Virus record (IMG/VR): IMGVR_UViG_3300046542_000168
Location: 43,408-107,407 of that record
Length of the DNA: 64,000 bases
Source of the DNA: a virus
Strand: one strand, 5' to 3'
Part shown: piece by piece, positions 2,525-59,755 of the stretch
How the letters are laid out: every line of letters begins with the position of its first letter
Position numbering within the stretch: the first letter of the stretch is position 1
Notes under the pieces: model-generated
Seen by the model: the letters and a program-made list of their open reading frames with translations, nothing else
Database searches by the model: none
Told to the model about the DNA's origin: nothing
Translations under genes and position numbers: made by a program

Positions 2525-2592
2525 TTACAAATGCAGAGACTTACGGCTTATGTCGTTACAAGTCAAACCGGGGATATGCACCCCTTTACAAT

Positions 2593-2674
2593 AGCGAGAG
2601 AGTTAAGACTGTCTGGTGATGTCGCCCGGCTCATAACCGGCTGCTTTGTGGTTCGATTCCACCTCTCGCCACCA
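2593..2674 (+). tRNA. tRNA-Met/Ile2(CAU), atypical
   Basis: anticodon CAT, GCGAGAG/CTCTCGC acceptor, unpaired top position (initiator-like), long acceptor-D linker, CCA. Confidence 0.7.
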
Positions 2675-2678
2675 TATT

Positions 2679-2767
2679 TGAAGAGAGAACCTGGGTTCAA
2701 GTCCCTTGTCTCGGAAGGCCCGCCTGTATAACAGGGCTGATAGCTTAGTGGATTAAAGCGCTCTTCA
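2679..2767 (+). ncRNA. circularly permuted tRNA-like element (YrlA-like topology)
   Basis: T-arm (GGG TTCAAGT CCC) precedes D-arm (TAGCTTAGTGGATTAAAGC); ends pair as TGAAGAG/CTCTTCA. Confidence 0.6.
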
Positions 2768-2838
2768 TCTCACACACTGGGTTGCTCCCCATGTGAACAC
2801 TCGCCACAGAGTGTATAAATAAGTGTGGCACGATCAAT

Positions 2839-2915
2839 TGGACATAAGCTAACTAGGCGGAAGCGGGTGGCTGTTAACCACCAGATGCTAGGTTCGAATC
2901 CTAGATGTCCAGCCA
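2839..2915 (+). tRNA. tRNA-Asn(GUU)
   Basis: cloverleaf, anticodon GTT, CCA. Confidence 0.9.
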
Positions 2916-3031
2916 ACTTTGCGACGTGAGGTTTTATGCCCACGATCCTTCCAGGGCTTACCTGGGAGAGATGAGAGTCGCGCATTAAGCTGTCTGCTAG
3001 GCCCGGACGTTAAATGGGCGACAAGATCAAT

Positions 3032-45770: not shown

Positions 45771-46268
45771 ATGGCTAGCGGCAAGAAAACGGTTAAAAAT
45801 CGTACAGAAATGACCGTCACCGATCACACGACTGGGGAGGCTCTATCGAGTGAAAAAACCGTCACGTACAGAGTCCCGAGAGAGCCGGACTTTGTAAAGG
45901 TGTACACCGGGGCCTTTAAGGAGGTAGTCACAAAGAAGGGTTGCCATCTGGCGATGTTTATGCTTCTGGTTGACAAGATGGGGTATGAGAATGAAATCGG
46001 CCTGACCCCGGCCGGTCGTGTCAGGATCTGCGAAGCCCTGGGTATCCAGGCACAGACCTTCCGAAACCATTTGAATGACTTGCTGGAGCGCGATGTTCTC
46101 CGTCGAACTAGTCACGGAGAGTTCATAGTAAACCCGACGTATATTGCCAGGGGTGAGTTCGAGAAAATTCTGCCCAGGATAGAGGCGTACAATAAGATCG
46201 GGAGGGTGAAAACTAAGAAGGGTCGGGCCCCGAAGCCTAAAGAATCCCTGGAAGAGTCAACTAATTGA
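45771..46268 (+). CDS. RepL-like wHTH replication/maintenance protein
   Basis: D..TGE, FVKVY, HTH (ICEALGIQAQTFRNHL..L), G.FIVNP.YI.RG. Confidence 0.7.
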   Translation: MASGKKTVKNRTEMTVTDHTTGEALSSEKTVTYRVPREPDFVKVYTGAFKEVVTKKGCHLAMFMLLVDKMGYENEIGLTPAGRVRICEALGIQAQTFRNHLNDLLERDVLRRTSHGEFIVNPTYIARGEFEKILPRIEAYNKIGRVKTKKGRAPKPKESLEESTN

Positions 46269-46274
46269 TACAAG

Positions 46275-46296
46275 AAAAGGGCCGAAAGGCCCTTTT
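46275..46296. terminator. bidirectional terminator
   Basis: AAAAGGGCC-gaaa-GGCCCTTTT. Confidence 0.8.
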
Positions 46297-46371
46297 TATT
46301 TGCCCGAAATAAGGGGCTAAAACAACTAAAGGGGCCATATGGCCCCTTGCTATATACGACTTTTTACTGCC

Positions 46372-46965
46372 CTACTGGGGTGGCTGGATAAATCCATGAC
46401 TAGTCAGCCACATATCCAGGGCCTCGGTCATAATGGCTTTCTGTGACTTCTTAGTAAACATCCCAGCCAGTTTCAACAACTGGGCGCGACGGGGATCTAA
46501 TGGGGTGCTGACGTTACACTCCTTTAGAAACTCCGGGTTGAGTCCCCCTGTTTCCATCATTCCAGTTAGCATAGCAGCCATAGCCGCCATTGGATTCTGA
46601 GGTGCATCGCTCACTGGTGCAGCTTCCTGTACTGGTTGCGGTTGAGTGGGTGCAGGCTCTACTACCTGGGCAACTGGTGCAGGTTCCGCTACTTGCTGCG
46701 GTTGAACTGGCGTTGGCTGTGGTGCTGCAACTGGTGCAGGGACAACTTCTTCAGCCTGGGCGATTTCAGTCTGTGCAACTAACACAGGCTGCGGGGCTGG
46801 CTCTTCTGTTACCTGGGGCTGAGCAACTACCGGCTCTTGTACCTGGGCTGCACCTACCGCCGAGATGTTATTCACCGGGGTCGGGTTCGTAAGCATATCT
46901 TGAAGAGATAGGCGATCAGCGGCACGGTCGGCGGCGCGATCTGTTCGAGTTTTCTTGGCGCTCAT
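46372..46965 (-). CDS. ribbon-helix-helix centromere-binding protein with long P/Q/A/V linker (type Ib ParB/ParG-like)
   Basis: C-terminal NVSTPLD..RAQLLK....TKKSQKAIMTEALDMWL; basic N-terminus; downstream of parA. Confidence 0.65.
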   Translation of the reverse strand: MSAKKTRTDRAADRAADRLSLQDMLTNPTPVNNISAVGAAQVQEPVVAQPQVTEEPAPQPVLVAQTEIAQAEEVVPAPVAAPQPTPVQPQQVAEPAPVAQVVEPAPTQPQPVQEAAPVSDAPQNPMAAMAAMLTGMMETGGLNPEFLKECNVSTPLDPRRAQLLKLAGMFTKKSQKAIMTEALDMWLTSHGFIQPPQ

Positions 46966-46980
46966 AATTGCATACCTGCT

Positions 46981-47420
46981 TAATTATTCAACCACTTCTT
47001 TAAGTGGCCGCGTGATGACGTGGTTGAGCCCTCACGTCACTGATGCAGCGCTTACCTGGGCAAGCGGTCACTATAGCAACCACTCCCCTGCGTAACCCCT
47101 CACGCGATTAGATGCCTAACTGACTGATTCGTCAAGCGATCAACCACGCAAGTGACCATTCAAGTAAGCGGACACTCGGTCAATTAGCCGAGTCATCACG
47201 CGGGTGATGAATCAATCGTTCAAGCAATTGATGGATCAATGGACCGATTGAACGATGGATCAATGAAGCCATTGATCCATCGGATGTATATACAACCCAT
47301 GGGTCAATGGATCACTCGTTCAAGCAATTGATTGATCACTCGTTTGCTTGGTCAGTCACTTCGCCGCCTGCTTGCCTGACTGGTCATCCAGTTTGATGCT
47401 TGCGTGCTTGCTCGGCTTCT
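46981..47420. repeat. degenerate 4-nt-period array (candidate centromere, part 1)
   Basis: in-register tetramers caat/tgat/cgat/caag/cact; extends into the 3' end of parA. Confidence 0.7.
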
Positions 47421-48135
47421 TCACCACCTTTGCCTTGCCCACTTCTTCATTAGTAAGTGGGTCGATGATTACTGGGTTTTCGACATGAATGCCCAGCTCC
47501 ATCAGGATGCAGTCGGTTAGGGCGGCAATCTCCCTGGCACCCTTATTACGCTTATCAATCTCGGCCAGGGTGCTACCAGTTCTCAGACAGTTCACGAAAC
47601 CTGCCTTGTAGTGGATGGTAGGGCCAAGCTTCCCGGCAGACGCCAGGGCAATCACTGCATCAGTTGCAATGTTGGTGGTCGGATGTACTTCGTTCAGTAC
47701 GAACAGCCGGGGAGTAGTGATTTCTTTCGAAGTGAGGTCGCTCAACGACTTGACCATCGACCACAGGTCGAAGTAGCTAGCCTTCGAAGGCATAACCAAC
47801 AGGTCAGCAAGTTTGAGCACGTTGAAGATATCGCTGTGGCCGAAACCTGGGGTGTCGATCACCAGGAAATCCAGGCCCCCCGCTTCCAGCTTCGGGATTA
47901 CTGCTTCTAGCTGATCGATGCCGATAGCCAGCAACTCTGGGTCGCCCAACTCGCGCTTGTCCAACCATGTAGTGGTGTTCGCAGTGGGGTCGATGTCCAT
48001 CATGCCAACGTGGTAGCCCTTCGATGCCAGGGTGCCGCCGAGTTGAACGCTGATGGTGGACTTACCACAGCCGCCCTTCTGGTTGGTGACACAGATGATC
48101 TTGAGCTTACGCTTGAACTGACTAGGGAGTTGCAT
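47356..48135 (-). CDS. parA: ParA-family partition ATPase (type Ib, no N-terminal HTH)
   Basis: deviant Walker A NQKGGCGKST, DIDP, VIDTPG, ADLLVMP. Confidence 0.92.
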   Translation of the reverse strand: MQLPSQFKRKLKIICVTNQKGGCGKSTISVQLGGTLASKGYHVGMMDIDPTANTTTWLDKRELGDPELLAIGIDQLEAVIPKLEAGGLDFLVIDTPGFGHSDIFNVLKLADLLVMPSKASYFDLWSMVKSLSDLTSKEITTPRLFVLNEVHPTTNIATDAVIALASAGKLGPTIHYKAGFVNCLRTGSTLAEIDKRNKGAREIAALTDCILMELGIHVENPVIIDPLTNEEVGKAKVVKKPSKHASIKLDDQSGKQAAK

Positions 48136-48160
48136 GGGTGCTTCCTCTATATATAGGTGC

Positions 48161-48980
48161 TCACTGAGTGAGCTATTCCTTGCTAGGTTGACCGCTTACG
48201 CGGCTGAGTGCGTCCGTGCGTGGGCAAGCTATCGATGGGGCAGTCGGTCACTCGCGTAACCCATCACTGCATCAATCGCCTGGGTAATCCCCTAAGTGCG
48301 CAATTCATCGAGCCATTCATTGGCCGATCATTTCACTGCTTGAGTCATCCATCGCTCGATTGGTCGGTAGCGTGCTTCTTCACTTAATCAATGCGTCAAT
48401 CAAGTGCTTCCGCACGCAACCCATCAAGCAAGCCATTAGTCCATCCATCGCTTCCGTAAGCACTCACTGGCGCGATTCACCACTTACTTGGTCGTTCGCT
48501 TGCGTGAGTGACTGGTTACGCGGTGAAGCAACTACTGGCTTGCTCAACCACTCCCTCGCTCGACTATCTGATTGCCCGACCGATTAAGGCAGGAATCAAT
48601 CAATGAGTCAGTCAACGAAGCAGTTGCTCGATCAACCGAGTCATCACTCGGTCAGGAACTCAATCACTTGCGCCCTTGAGGAACCATTTAAACACCCGCT
48701 CGATCCCTTGTCAAACTAATTGATAGCTTAAAGCCTTCATGAATTGATCGTGCGACTGACCGATAGATCGATAGGCTGATGAATTGAGTGACCAACCGAT
48801 GGAGCGATGATTGACTGAAGTAATTGATATCTCCATTCCTGAAGCAAGCAATGCCGCACTGATGTGTGTGAGGCAATGATGACAGGACCGAATGAACAAG
48901 CGTCCAATGGGTCAAGCAATTGATGGATCAATGGGTCGAGCGTTCAATGGGTCAATGGAACCATGGGATGTATATACAAG
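48161..48980. repeat. degenerate 4-nt-period array (candidate centromere, part 2)
   Basis: same tetramer register for ~800 bp; shares TCAAGCAATTGATGGATCAATGG and GGATGTATATACAA blocks with part 1. Confidence 0.7.
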
Positions 48981-49137
48981 TAACGGTCCTACGCCGATTC
49001 TGACCAGTTCACAGGAGCTAAGCCCCTGCCAGGGCACCCAGGGTCGGCATACCGCTATCCAGGCCAATACCAGGGCAGATACGCAACGTCGCTACAGGGG
49101 GCTCATAGGGGCTTCAGGCGGTAAATTCGCAGGAGGG

Positions 49138-49289
49138 TTGCAAGGATGGGAGGAAGTGGATAGAGTGCCGTCCGTCGAACGTTGCTGACCCTCATAATCT
49201 CCCCGGAATATGTTGGTCCGTTGCTTCCTTGCTCTGATCCGTGATTGGTGGCGTTCGATACTAAGCCGCTCCCTCGTGAGCGGCTTTTT
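49138..49289 (+). ncRNA. sRNA cassette 1 (promoter + ~115 nt + terminator)
   Basis: TTGCAA-N17-TAGAGT; terminator AAGCCGCTC/GAGCGGCTT-TTT; no + strand ORF with RBS. Confidence 0.55.
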
Positions 49290-49381
49290 CATGCCCGCAA
49301 TAATTGCCTCACAGGGGCTCTATCCCGCAAGGCCCATCGGTCAGATTGTCCTACACCTCAGATGAACGGTGCCATCACTCA

Positions 49382-49485
49382 TTGCGTCAGGTGCCATCAT
49401 TGGGTAAAATCCCTGGGTTGGTTGTACAGTTCGCCTACTCAGCAACAACATCGAGAAGCCGCCCACACCGGGGCGGCTTTTCTTT
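49382..49485 (+). ncRNA. sRNA cassette 2 (promoter + ~70 nt + terminator)
   Basis: TTGCGT-N17-TAAAAT; terminator AAGCCGCCC/GGGCGGCTT-TTT. Confidence 0.55.
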
Positions 49486-49517
49486 ATCTGATGGAATGGC
49501 TGGACAGGCGAACAGTA

Positions 49518-49533
49518 CTGTATATAATTACAG
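49518..49533. promoter_or_regulatory. LexA (SOS) box overlapping a -10 element
   Basis: taCTGTATATAATTACAG = CTGT-N8-ACAG; promoter TGGACA-N16-TATAAT. Confidence 0.85.
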
Positions 49534-49534
49534 C

Positions 49535-49626
49535 GTTAACCTCGGTAGGGACTCGTCATCCCTTCACCAGTCTTAGGGTGGATTCGTCGTCCACACTTTA
49601 GCCGCCTACCAGGGCGGCTTTTCTTT
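49535..49626 (+). ncRNA. sRNA cassette 3, predicted SOS-inducible ~90-nt RNA
   Basis: lies between the LexA-boxed promoter and terminator AGCCGCC/GGCGGCT-TTT; no credible ORF. Confidence 0.6.
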
Positions 49627-49704
49627 GCTCGATGGGGAAGGAGTAGAGGGAGGGGTAGAGCAGAAATGAAGAAGGGCCTCGATTGAGGCCCTTGCTTGTG
49701 TAGC

Positions 49705-50097
49705 TTATTCGTTGAGAGTGGCCCAACCTTTTACCGCTTCAACTCCCCACTTCTTCCTCCACTCATTGAGCACTGTGTGGTTGCCGTGAGAGCTAACAAT
49801 TTTCTCGTTAGTGTGAGGATTTACCCAGGTCTTTGTGGGCCTTCCTCCCTCTGTTGTAGCTGCTGCCTTAGCTACCTTAGCTGCACCTGTAGCTTGAGCT
49901 TTCGGAGCCTTATAGTTCTCATCAAGGATCTGATTCACATCTACCAGGGAGCGAGAGTGCTTAGCTAGGAGAGCACGTAGCTCACTCTCGAATACCTGTA
50001 GCGACTTAAGCTCAGGGTCATCCTGAAGAGCATCCAGTTGAGCTTTAGCCGCAGCTAGGGCAGCTCGTGCGAGACGGAGTTGAACGATCTTGGACAT
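49705..50097 (-). CDS. second MvaT-family nucleoid protein (divergent)
   Basis: FE.ELRALL..H..SL.DV..IL and W.NPHTNE.I....GNH.VL.EW..KWG.EAV.GW. Confidence 0.85.
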   Translation of the reverse strand: MSKIVQLRLARAALAAAKAQLDALQDDPELKSLQVFESELRALLAKHSRSLVDVNQILDENYKAPKAQATGAAKVAKAAATTEGGRPTKTWVNPHTNEKIVSSHGNHTVLNEWRKKWGVEAVKGWATLNE

Positions 50098-50205
50098 ATA
50101 GCTCTCTTGCGTGATTGGTGGAAAGTCTTACACTAGCAGTGCGTTAAGTCGCGCACTATAAGCTCAAGTAGCTCGCAACGGAAGAGAGTACTCAAGCTTA
50201 AGCTC

Positions 50206-50318
50206 AAAAATTCCATCACAGGGGCCTCTCAAAAACTCCATTACAGGGGGTACAGATTTCCTCACAGTGGGGTACTGAATTTCCCTACAGGGGCTAGCTG
50301 AGTTTCCTCACACGGGGT
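50206..50318 (+). repeat. five imperfect ~23-bp direct repeats
   Basis: YTCC..YACA.GGGG cores with ACA at 50218, 50243, 50264, 50287 and 50310. Confidence 0.7.
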
Positions 50319-50384
50319 AAGCTCGATCTACCCTGGCTCGATGCTGCATTGTGAGCGTCCCCATTCATTCCTGTCTTAGATAGG

Positions 50385-50471
50385 TAGCTAACTATCGATT
50401 TACTTGCATAGCTAGCTATCGATTTAGTTGATTAGCTAACTAAGCATTTAGATGCATAGCTAACTAACTAC
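50385..50471 (+). repeat. 24-bp tandem repeat, ~3.5 copies
   Basis: TAGCTARCTA....TTTA..TG.. at 50385, 50409, 50433 and 50457. Confidence 0.75.
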
Positions 50472-50552
50472 CTGAATAGCGCCCACACTCCCCCCTTGAA
50501 GTCCGGTATCCGGCCCAGGCTGGCAGTGGCTCTGCCTGGGCTTACGTTCCCG

Positions 50553-50581
50553 CTAATACAGCATAGTCTATGCTGTATTAG
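50553..50581. promoter_or_regulatory. perfect 29-bp palindromic operator
   Basis: CTAATACAGCATAG-T-CTATGCTGTATTAG; core matches the early-promoter operator. Confidence 0.7.
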
Positions 50582-50733
50582 AGTCAGGGGCAAGCCCTGG
50601 GAGCATTATTTTTTAACCTGGCGCCCCTAGCTTTTAACCTGGCTCGATTCGCCTCTATATAGTCGGAATGTCCAGGGGGCTAGCCTGGGGCCTGGGCCTA
50701 CCTGGGGAATGAAAAGAAAATGAAAAAACAGCT

Positions 50734-50762
50734 TTACAGCATGGGCCATGCTGCAATAGGAT
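50734..50762 (+). promoter_or_regulatory. early promoter with operator
   Basis: TTACAG-CATGGGCCATGCTGCAA-TAGGAT. Confidence 0.7.
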
Positions 50763-50807
50763 TAACCCCATCGGAAAGAAGCGGCCCAGTAGGGCAAAGG
50801 GGAGCAA

Positions 50808-51590
50808 ATGAAATACCGCATAGAAGTACAGCAAGTTTTCACGGCTCAAGGTTATGACCGTGGCGGGGAATGGTTGGCCCTGGGCGACAAGCCACGCGGC
50901 AAGGCCGCTGCAATCGCCCTGATGGAAACTATCCAGGCCGCTAGTGGTTTGGAGCCTCCTTACCGCGTAGTCTCGGTTGACGCCCTGGGGGATCGCGTGG
51001 AAGTGGCGAGGATCGAAAGCCCGCATAAACCGGCCCCTAAGTATGCAGTCGAAGTAACAGACGCCCAGGGCGAGAAACGCCAGGAATTCGAATCGCTCCC
51101 CCTGGCTATGCAAATGTATACCGCTTGTGTTGACGGTGCCGAGAATGACCCACGCAAGGGCTATACCCGTCGTGTCGCCCTGGTCGGGATTGAGTCCGGC
51201 GATACTTACTATAAATGGGAGTATCTAGTCCCCCAGGCCCAGACCGGCGCTAATAAACGCCCTGAAGGGTTGACCGGCTCCCAGCTCGACTGGGCCTGTA
51301 AGCAGCCATGGTTCCACGCTTGCGAATACTTTAATGAGTTGTCGCGTAACTGGATTGTCTGGGCAAAGGAGGGGGATAAGGTTCACCCCTTTGCTGACTT
51401 TGCGGAGTTGCAAGCCTGGGCAAAGGCTAAAGAAGCCCAGGCGACTAAGCCGGTACTTTATCAAGTTTTCGAAAAGGCAACCGGGGAGGCAGTTGGCAAG
51501 AAGTATCATAATAGGAACGGCGCGGAGAATTATTGCGACGGGTTCCACCCCTACGCCCCCGGCTGTTATGAGGTAAGGCAAGTTCAATAA
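50808..51590 (+). CDS. hypothetical early protein (multi-domain)
   Basis: 260 aa, RBS GGGGAG. Confidence 0.75.
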   Translation: MKYRIEVQQVFTAQGYDRGGEWLALGDKPRGKAAAIALMETIQAASGLEPPYRVVSVDALGDRVEVARIESPHKPAPKYAVEVTDAQGEKRQEFESLPLAMQMYTACVDGAENDPRKGYTRRVALVGIESGDTYYKWEYLVPQAQTGANKRPEGLTGSQLDWACKQPWFHACEYFNELSRNWIVWAKEGDKVHPFADFAELQAWAKAKEAQATKPVLYQVFEKATGEAVGKKYHNRNGAENYCDGFHPYAPGCYEVRQVQ

Positions 51591-51665
51591 TTGATTAACC
51601 GGGCTGGCCCCTACCTGGGGCCAGTCATTAAAGAATCGGCCTAGTAAGGCAAAGGAGTTATAAAG

Positions 51666-51941
51666 ATGTCGGACCAACAAAAGACCATAGCCCAGGTGGT
51701 TATGGCCCTGGTAAGCCAGGGGAAAGCCGCTGTAACGTTAGAAGGGGGCTATGCCGTCGATTATGCCGGAAAGCGTACTATGTTCGCCCCTGGTCACGTT
51801 GTATCTGAAAAGCGCAATAAAGCCGGACGTTGTACAGCCCTGGTCGTAAGCTATAAGGATAATTCTGTATTGTCCTTTACATGGTCGGAAAATGCCGGGG
51901 CCCGTTATCAGGTTAAACCGTCGATTAAGGGGAGCAATTAA
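51666..51941 (+). CDS. hypothetical early protein
   Basis: RBS AAGGAG. Confidence 0.75.
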   Translation: MSDQQKTIAQVVMALVSQGKAAVTLEGGYAVDYAGKRTMFAPGHVVSEKRNKAGRCTALVVSYKDNSVLSFTWSENAGARYQVKPSIKGSN

Positions 51942-51942
51942 A

Positions 51943-52212
51943 ATGCTAAAGGCCCATTTTATTCGCGACACTATAGACGCCGACAAAGGCGCCCCGCGTG
52001 TGGTCCGGGTTATCCTTTGCGATAATCATGGTTATCTAACGTATGCGGGGGAGTGTGGCTGCTCCCGCCAGCACGATTACCAACGCTTTGCAGTAGTCGG
52101 CACTTCCTACGGCTGGCTACATAATACCGCCGGTGATAAACGTTTCTGGCAATCTGAATCGGGCGCCCGCCATGCTCTTAAAAATTATCAGGGGGTTGAC
52201 CATGCCAACTAA
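51943..52212 (+). CDS. hypothetical early protein
   Basis: RBS GGAG, operon packing. Confidence 0.7.
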   Translation: MLKAHFIRDTIDADKGAPRVVRVILCDNHGYLTYAGECGCSRQHDYQRFAVVGTSYGWLHNTAGDKRFWQSESGARHALKNYQGVDHAN

Positions 52213-59095: not shown

Positions 59096-59472
59096 CAAGC
59101 AAGGCGCTAGACCGGATAATGGGACGCCTAGATAAGGCGCTTGCAAAGGCTATGCAGATAGCCCTAACCGAGATTGAAAAGGAGGCCAGGAAGGCTATAG
59201 AGGCTAGCCCGGATACAGTTAAAAGCTTTTGTATGGCAATGGGGAGTGCATCTTTCCACGTTGTCTGGCTTGAAAACTGGGACGGGGAGCCGATGCCTAG
59301 GGATGAGCATATAAACCCGGATGAATTCGAAAAGTATGGGCATATAAACCGCCATGCTGGAAATATTGCAAAGCTGTTAAATGAATATAATTGTATGTTG
59401 CGGCTTACCGGCTATCCGATGAAAATAGTACGCGACGACGACGGCGAACTTATTAAACTTAAAGACTGGTGA
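59092..59472 (+). CDS. hypothetical early protein
   Basis: ATGA coupling. Confidence 0.7.
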   Translation: MTSKALDRIMGRLDKALAKAMQIALTEIEKEARKAIEASPDTVKSFCMAMGSASFHVVWLENWDGEPMPRDEHINPDEFEKYGHINRHAGNIAKLLNEYNCMLRLTGYPMKIVRDDDGELIKLKDW

Positions 59473-59476
59473 ACCT

Positions 59477-59755
59477 ATGACGACTCAATCAATTCCTTTA
59501 GATCAACTGCAAACTGTACTAGAACATAAGTTCCAGTTTCGCCATATTAAAAACGCCAGGACTGCTAAAGGCTTTTTTGTAAAATTGGAACGGTGCCCGC
59601 TCCCCATCTATAACGATAATGCGGAATATTCCGGGGCCGATCTATTGTCTATGCTGGGCAAGCTAACCGAGTGGGAAAAGACTATTGCAGAATGTAGGGA
59701 AGGACTCTATGACGCTCTAGCAGCCCAGGTAAAGGCCCAGCAAGCTAACCGCTAA
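59477..59755 (+). CDS. hypothetical early protein
   Basis: operon packing, followed by terminator. Confidence 0.68.
   Translation: MTTQSIPLDQLQTVLEHKFQFRHIKNARTAKGFFVKLERCPLPIYNDNAEYSGADLLSMLGKLTEWEKTIAECREGLYDALAAQVKAQQANR

Follow-up and report, generated by a model that had tools for sequence, protein, structure and literature searches.

Can an RNA alone tell a temperate phage that the DNA of its host is damaged? To our knowledge, all routes that lead from DNA damage to prophage induction are protein-based, relying either on self-cleaving CI-type repressors or on LexA-controlled antirepressor proteins; lambda OOP is the one phage RNA known to us with a LexA site in its promoter, and the LexA-regulated small RNAs of which we are aware make a very short list. 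The question is raised by a compact unit in an IMG/VR virus record of 107,407 bp that carries direct terminal repeats and was recovered from a rhizosphere metagenome assembly. The window, i.e., the whole 64,000-nucleotide stretch analysed here, comprises bases 43408-107407 of this record. The genome is that of a siphovirus-like, tRNA-rich phage (18 tRNAs in the window), and its large terminase finds its nearest counterparts, at 42% identity, in the Pseudomonas phages phiPMW and vB_PpS_SYP. The unit lies in a non-coding gap of about 1.5 kb between the genes for ParA and an MvaT-like protein. It was aligned pairwise with L140, a metagenome contig of 107,168 bp which encodes an MvaT-like protein 69% identical to that of the window and is the sole diverged relative readable in full. 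The features to be considered are the following (window positions unless stated otherwise).

Genome positions 2537-3031, outside the window: tyrosine recombinase (Pfam Phage_integrase, E = 1.4e-45)
45771-46268: RepL-like protein, in the plasmid-maintenance module around the small-RNA unit
47356-48135, minus strand: ParA, in the same plasmid-maintenance module
49393-49490, plus strand: upstream cassette sRNA2, with a promoter TTGCGT-17-TAAAAT (recognised by eye) and a terminator at 49453-49482; not under a LexA box
49501-49506, plus strand: -35 hexamer TGGACA, from a consensus scan; the aligned position in L140 reads TGTACA
49516-49535, no strand: LexA (SOS) box, 20-mer TACTGTATATAATTACAGCG, with the core CTGT-N8-ACAG at 49518-49533
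49523-49528, plus strand: -10 hexamer TATAAT behind a 16-bp spacer; L140 has TAAAAT, its spacer also being 16 bp
49535-49626, plus strand: predicted non-coding RNA of about 88-92 nt, with its putative start at G49535, 7 nt past the -10 box
49544-49568, plus strand: hairpin 1 of the predicted fold, GGTAGGGA, loop CTCGTCA, TCCCTTCACC
49575-49598, plus strand: hairpin 2 of the predicted fold (GGGTGGAT...GTCCAC), missing from L140
49600-49627, plus strand: intrinsic terminator, its stem (49600-49619) of 8 bp, 6 of them GC, closed by a 4-nt loop and followed by the tail TTTCTTTG
49705-50097, minus strand: MvaT-like xenogeneic-silencer gene (Pfam MvaT_DBD), convergent to the small RNA

What kind of phage carries this unit, and in which host? 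ParA, the RepL-like protein, the tyrosine recombinase and an operator shared by the early promoters all point to a temperate phage that probably lives as a plasmid. The shared operator is a palindrome, CAGCATR-N3-YATGCTG, present in six copies in early-promoter spacers (window positions 50559, 50737, 53551, 56399, 60112, and 61908); one palindromic operator common to the early promoters implies one master repressor. A master repressor was not found in the genome: the Peptidase_S24 domain of self-cleaving repressors occurs nowhere in the 107,407 bp, and there is only one HTH_3-like ORF. The host is probably Pseudomonas-like, because the MvaT family is almost confined to Pseudomonas-like bacteria (in a tblastn search, relatives of the MvaT-like protein on plasmids came almost exclusively from Pseudomonas and its kin) and because the nearest terminase is that of Pseudomonas phages. 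Such a host would in turn probably have a LexA of the CTG-N10-CAG type; the Pseudomonas consensus is CTG-TATAA-ATATA-CAG (PMC13114513).

Is the palindrome at the start of the unit an operator for this LexA? The promoter itself, TGGACA-16-TATAAT, matches the sigma-70 consensus at 11 of 12 positions and is the sole promoter-like match that a consensus scan returned between 48500 and 50500; the same type of scan detected no minus-strand promoter at the palindrome. The core of the box, CTGTATATAATTACAG (49518-49533), overlaps both the -10 hexamer and the predicted +1, so that a bound protein would occlude the promoter, and a box over -10 and +1 is the usual position for repression by LexA. Of the 20 positions of the E. 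coli/Salmonella consensus TACTGTATATATATACAGTA (PMC8072944), the 20-mer matches 16; its core agrees with the P. aeruginosa consensus (PMC13114513) at 13 of 16. The match is also singular: CTG-N10-CAG with an AT-rich core occurs once in the entire 107,407-bp genome, CTGT[AT]8ACAG is expected 0.003 times per genome (300 dinucleotide-matched simulated genomes), and a weighted consensus scan of the genome places this box on top with 31 of 34, the next sites scoring 26.5. The second-best LexA-like site, at 50273-50292, was dismissed, its score being no higher than those of several other background sites. Elsewhere in IMG/VR, the exact 18-mer of the box is found at 76 loci; these are unrelated, and none resembles the RNA described here.

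What does the promoter transcribe? The predicted RNA (49535-49626) folds with -31.3 kcal/mol (z = -3.15 against shuffled sequences), and its terminator is related to that of the upstream cassette sRNA2. A CU-rich stretch, CATCCCTTCACC, coincides with the 3' arm of hairpin 1, and the motif CCTTCACC (49561-49568) within this arm is kept in L140. No ORF of at least 20 codons starts with ATG, GTG or TTG inside the transcript, no ORF on either strand is conserved between the window and L140, and the short ORFs of the unit, on both strands, are neither hydrophobic nor conserved. When the window was searched against Rfam 15, tRNAs alone passed the gathering score; the small RNA matches no family, the best local scores staying far below threshold (Arrc14, 18.4 bits versus 99; suhB, 14.8 versus 41). 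The descriptive part of the earlier note, which had been written from the letters of this DNA, therefore stands, each element lying where that note placed it: the near-ideal SOS box over TATAAT is present, a predicted promoter and an intrinsic terminator delimit a transcript of about 90 nt, a credible ORF is lacking, and the CU-rich stretch is real and conserved in part.

Is any of this kept in other phages? In L140, a corresponding unit occupies the matching place, flanked by the par region on one side and by the mvaT-like 3' end on the other. Its promoter is TGTACA-16-TAAAAT with a CTG-N10-CAG box, TACTGGTTAAAATTACAGTG, over the -10 hexamer (the left half-site reads CTGG); the RNA has a single hairpin (GGTGAA, loop CTGGTCC, TTCACC) ending in CCTTCACC, and an 11-bp GC-rich stem followed by CTTTTG forms a terminator, again at the matching place. 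Promoter, operator and terminator can thus be read in both genomes, a coding frame in neither, and the layout is conserved. Identity is distributed very unevenly: the box block (49512-49535) is 83% identical and is the best-conserved intergenic piece, compared with 47% for the whole non-coding region, 33% for the -35 hexamer and spacer, 56% for hairpin 1 and 32% for the linker and hairpin 2. Within the transcript, what persists is GYGTYARCCT at the 5' end, the hairpin-1 loop CTNGTCN (CUNGUCN in the RNA) and the motif CCUUCACC; the poor conservation of the RNA body and the absence of hairpin 2 from L140 argue against a long conserved seed.

Closer relatives add to this picture. The segment recurs in related contigs from three further studies (four public runs): two soil-metagenome contigs match the window without a difference over 49421-49697, and identity is about 93-95% for the "organism A" contigs and about 87% for a wastewater contig of 46,979 bp; the unit is spanned by the longest organism A contig and by the wastewater contig. 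An organism A variant (run X2) keeps the hairpin-1 loop CTCGTCA with an altered 5' arm. Across window positions 46000-52000, relatives at 87-100% identity come from soil, from wastewater and from two runs labelled with a single organism (X2-X5); the two labels suggest that a related phage-plasmid may have a carrier in culture. Among the sequencing runs listed for this sequence there was no RNA run. At the protein level, the MvaT-like protein has six homologues in metagenome assemblies, 60-87% identical (among them P0002, 87%; P0003, 76%; P0005, 64%; and P0007, 60%). A blastn search with 49200-49700 against phage and plasmid records returned no related DNA, the MvaT-like protein, ParA, TerL and RepL retrieved no close relatives from phage, plasmid, IMG/VR and GTDB collections, and the LexA box is absent from L141, whose MvaT-like protein is 29% identical.

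Do these comparisons leave room for a palindrome that is no LexA operator at all, the promoter being constitutive or controlled by a phage protein, or the unit being a decayed remnant with an inert RNA? Some observations would suit such a reading: the -10 box itself imposes part of the AT-rich core, a second conserved palindrome extends into the left half-site, conservation of the RNA body is weak, and hairpin 2 is dispensable. It is nevertheless highly unlikely, given that CTG and CAG persist in L140 at the exact N10 spacing although the -10 hexamer has changed from TATAAT to TAAAAT, that the chance expectation is so low, that both genomes retain the terminator and hairpin 1, and that no remains of a degraded ORF are seen. 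Taken on its sequence, the unit is a real, conserved and probably LexA-repressed small-RNA gene.

The second palindrome, the 8-bp CAGTACTG at 49513-49520, deserves a mention of its own. It is kept in L140 and could reflect chance or a site for a second protein; its conservation and its overlap with the left half of the LexA box make use by another protein conceivable.

If the promoter is under LexA control, what would the RNA do? We lean, with moderate confidence, towards a stand-alone small-RNA gene under SOS control, carried by a temperate phage-plasmid of a probably Pseudomonas-like host; the product of the gene would most likely be a base-pairing riboregulator. In an undamaged cell, host LexA would sit on the operator that covers the -10 hexamer and the start site, keeping the promoter shut; upon DNA damage, RecA-stimulated cleavage of LexA would free the promoter, and a structured non-coding RNA of about 90 nt would be made and ended by its own intrinsic terminator. 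As a base-pairing riboregulator, this RNA would then relay the damage signal to the phage-plasmid. We infer LexA binding and SOS induction, together with base pairing as the mode of action and any influence on the choice between lysis and lysogeny. With no S24 repressor and no other LexA box, the RNA is the only visible SOS input of this genome.

Is the signal then passed to a repressor? That the only SOS-wired unit sits in a genome lacking a self-cleaving repressor is in keeping with how LexA-controlled antirepressors work (PMC3121763), and the earlier note had gone as far as to propose an RNA antirepressor that blocks repressor translation or otherwise triggers lysis. In its fullest form, this would mean that, in a phage-plasmid with neither a self-cleaving repressor nor a LexA-controlled protein antirepressor, a single LexA-derepressed RNA triggers the passage from plasmid prophage to lytic growth upon DNA damage by silencing a maintenance factor, for instance the master repressor or the MvaT-like silencer. 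The LexA-type promoter and the short non-coding RNA of that proposal hold up and have counterparts in L140, whereas the antirepressor role does not fare well and appears very doubtful. There is no S24 repressor to be silenced; a search of the genome revealed no significant complementarity between the RNA and repressor start sites, nor is any evident by eye at the start region of the HTH_3-like ORF; and the 5' UTR of the mvaT-like gene pairs with the LexA-controlled RNA over matches of 6-7 nt at most, which are not conserved (by eye), so that this candidate was set aside. The best target is marginal, and none among the orthologous genes compared is common to the window and L140. This best target covers the start of an early ORF:

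59462-59483, plus strand: best antisense match in the phage genome, from -15 to +7 of a 92-aa early ORF (59477-59755)

Could the RNA block translation of this ORF in trans? Nucleotides 19-40 of the RNA, which make up the hairpin-1 loop, the 3' arm and the linker, would pair with it through 12 bp, 3 mismatches and 7 bp, the last covering the start codon, and the match ranks first among 172 start regions. Its significance is marginal (blastn-short E = 0.16; 10 of 200 shuffled RNAs do equally well, i.e., p ~0.05 over the 172 start regions), the product has no known function and the pairing region is partly buried in hairpin 1; we regard regulation of this ORF as a weak lead and a long shot. Where the window (43-57.5 kb) and L140 have orthologous genes, none of these has a start region that pairs well, in each of the two genomes, with the RNA encoded there. 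Genome-wide RNAduplex scans were dominated by long, loopy duplexes and were uninformative. Two other modes of action were considered and rejected: a sponge for sRNA2, for which the window (p = 0.59) and L140 (p = 0.016) are inconsistent, and RsmA/CsrA-type GGA loops, as the GGA motifs lie outside loops and are absent in L140.

Must the RNA act through a distant target at all? The operator and promoter outconserve the RNA body and the unit converges on a silencer gene with a weak terminator, which makes cis action of the lambda OOP kind a serious rival: the SOS-induced RNA and its promoter would work against the convergent mvaT-like gene, pairing or polymerase collision lowering the silencer and helping to derepress the phage. 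The geometry is suggestive. Only about 45 nt separate the small-RNA and mvaT-like terminators, the latter (49693-49672) is weak, with the tail CTTCATTTCT, and no terminator was detected on this strand in L140, so mvaT-like transcripts that read through would be fully complementary to the RNA; moreover, a promoter and operator far better conserved than the RNA body are what one would expect if antisense position outweighs a trans-acting seed. The precedent is lambda OOP, a 77-nt RNA whose promoter pO contains a LexA-binding sequence (PMC5869508, citing Lewis et al. 1994); antisense to cII over the 3' end of that gene, it works via RNase III (PMC5869508, PMC2327240). Yet the RNA overlaps neither the mvaT-like coding region nor its predicted 3' end: it ends at about 49626, 78 nt short of the stop codon (49705), any overlap depending on read-through, and a strong terminator in both genomes keeps it short. 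The role of the MvaT-like protein in lysogeny is assumed, and even lambda OOP plays a minor role at most in SOS induction (PMC2327240). On this evidence we hold cis action against the silencer gene to be unlikely, its standing as a rival notwithstanding.

The mvaT-like gene has other small neighbours, the LexA-controlled unit being one of three tandem cassettes. The first contains CGTGATTGGTGG (49240-49251), 12 nt perfectly complementary to the mvaT-like 5' UTR at 50110-50121, just upstream of the Shine-Dalgarno sequence. L140 lacks both this cassette and the matching 5' UTR sequence, and the first cassette may regulate the silencer gene through a lineage-specific small RNA. In the middle cassette, sRNA2, a 22-nt body (GTTCGCCTACTYAGCAACRACA, 49428-49449) is almost the same in L140, where the LexA-controlled RNA is less well conserved; the 22-nt body has no complementary site in the phage genome, and pattern scans with the conserved 22-mer gave no matches. 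In or near the promoter of the middle cassette, GGTGCCATCA occurs twice, at 49368-49377 and 49390-49399, 22 bp apart; these are its only two copies in the genome, one of which is kept in L140 as GGTGCCATCATTGG, and the pair may be an operator for a phage protein.

A base-pairing riboregulator could also look outward. A trans-acting RNA aimed at host mRNAs (for instance of SOS, division or defence genes) would be a lysogenic-conversion or takeover small RNA made only under DNA damage. That no convincing phage target was found would agree with this, as would the U-tailed terminator hairpin and the short conserved CCUUCACC, which fit the usual shape of an Hfq-type small RNA, and prophage small RNAs acting on host genes are known, e.g., DicF (PMC10448788); the RNA body, however, diverges fast between relatives, and we think a host target quite improbable.

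How would a LexA-controlled riboregulator of a phage-plasmid, the reading that we prefer, compare with known systems? Temperate phages and phage-plasmids are familiar with control of antirepressor or immunity functions by small structured RNAs: P1 c4, P4 CI, and P22 sar. These RNAs maintain immunity instead of breaking it, are not known to be under LexA control and have evident complementary targets close by; here, by contrast, a LexA-type box is present and no such target was found. By analogy, lambda OOP RNA with pO would be the closest precedent. Like OOP, the unit would encode a phage non-coding RNA (about 77-90 nt for the two) with its own LexA-site promoter and intrinsic terminator, both predicted in our case, and it converges on its neighbour, which for OOP favours lysogeny, a role that for the MvaT-like protein is assumed. 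Unlike OOP, a true cis-antisense RNA on cII, the RNA here does not overlap the 3' end of the convergent gene, and the two are not similar in sequence; next to the unit stands an MvaT-type silencer instead of cII, and the setting is a plasmid-maintenance module. Because it lacks overlap with a target gene, the unit is not a member of the OOP type, though a similar action is possible.

The antirepressor precedent that the earlier note had invoked for 186 and N15 is genuine and extends to the Gifsy phages: 186 Tum, N15 AntC and Gifsy GfoA/GfhA are all LexA-controlled, and all are proteins (PMC3121763). In those prophages, whose own repressors are insensitive to RecA, the SOS signal enters through one small LexA-repressed unit, and the likeness is that the present genome, too, lacks an S24 repressor and has a single LexA box; the difference is that Tum, AntC and the Gfo proteins bind repressors, whereas the present unit has no ORF and its link to a repressor would be hypothetical. 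A short transcript under a LexA box also recalls the SOS-linked chromosomal small RNAs and type I toxin loci tisB/istR and dinQ/agrB (IstR is cited in PMC8072944); those loci, unlike this one, combine an ORF for a small hydrophobic toxin with an antisense partner.

What would such a unit mean for phage biology? It would add one member to the LexA-regulated small RNAs and, should the RNA act on the host, would represent a damage-specific small RNA of lysogenic conversion. The unit is compact (~130 bp) and easily tested. Its interest is moderate if it is seen as a small-RNA gene, and would be high if the RNA proved to be the trigger of induction: a phage-plasmid in which a non-coding RNA is the only SOS-wired transcript would offer a clean system in which to ask whether RNA alone can carry the induction signal.
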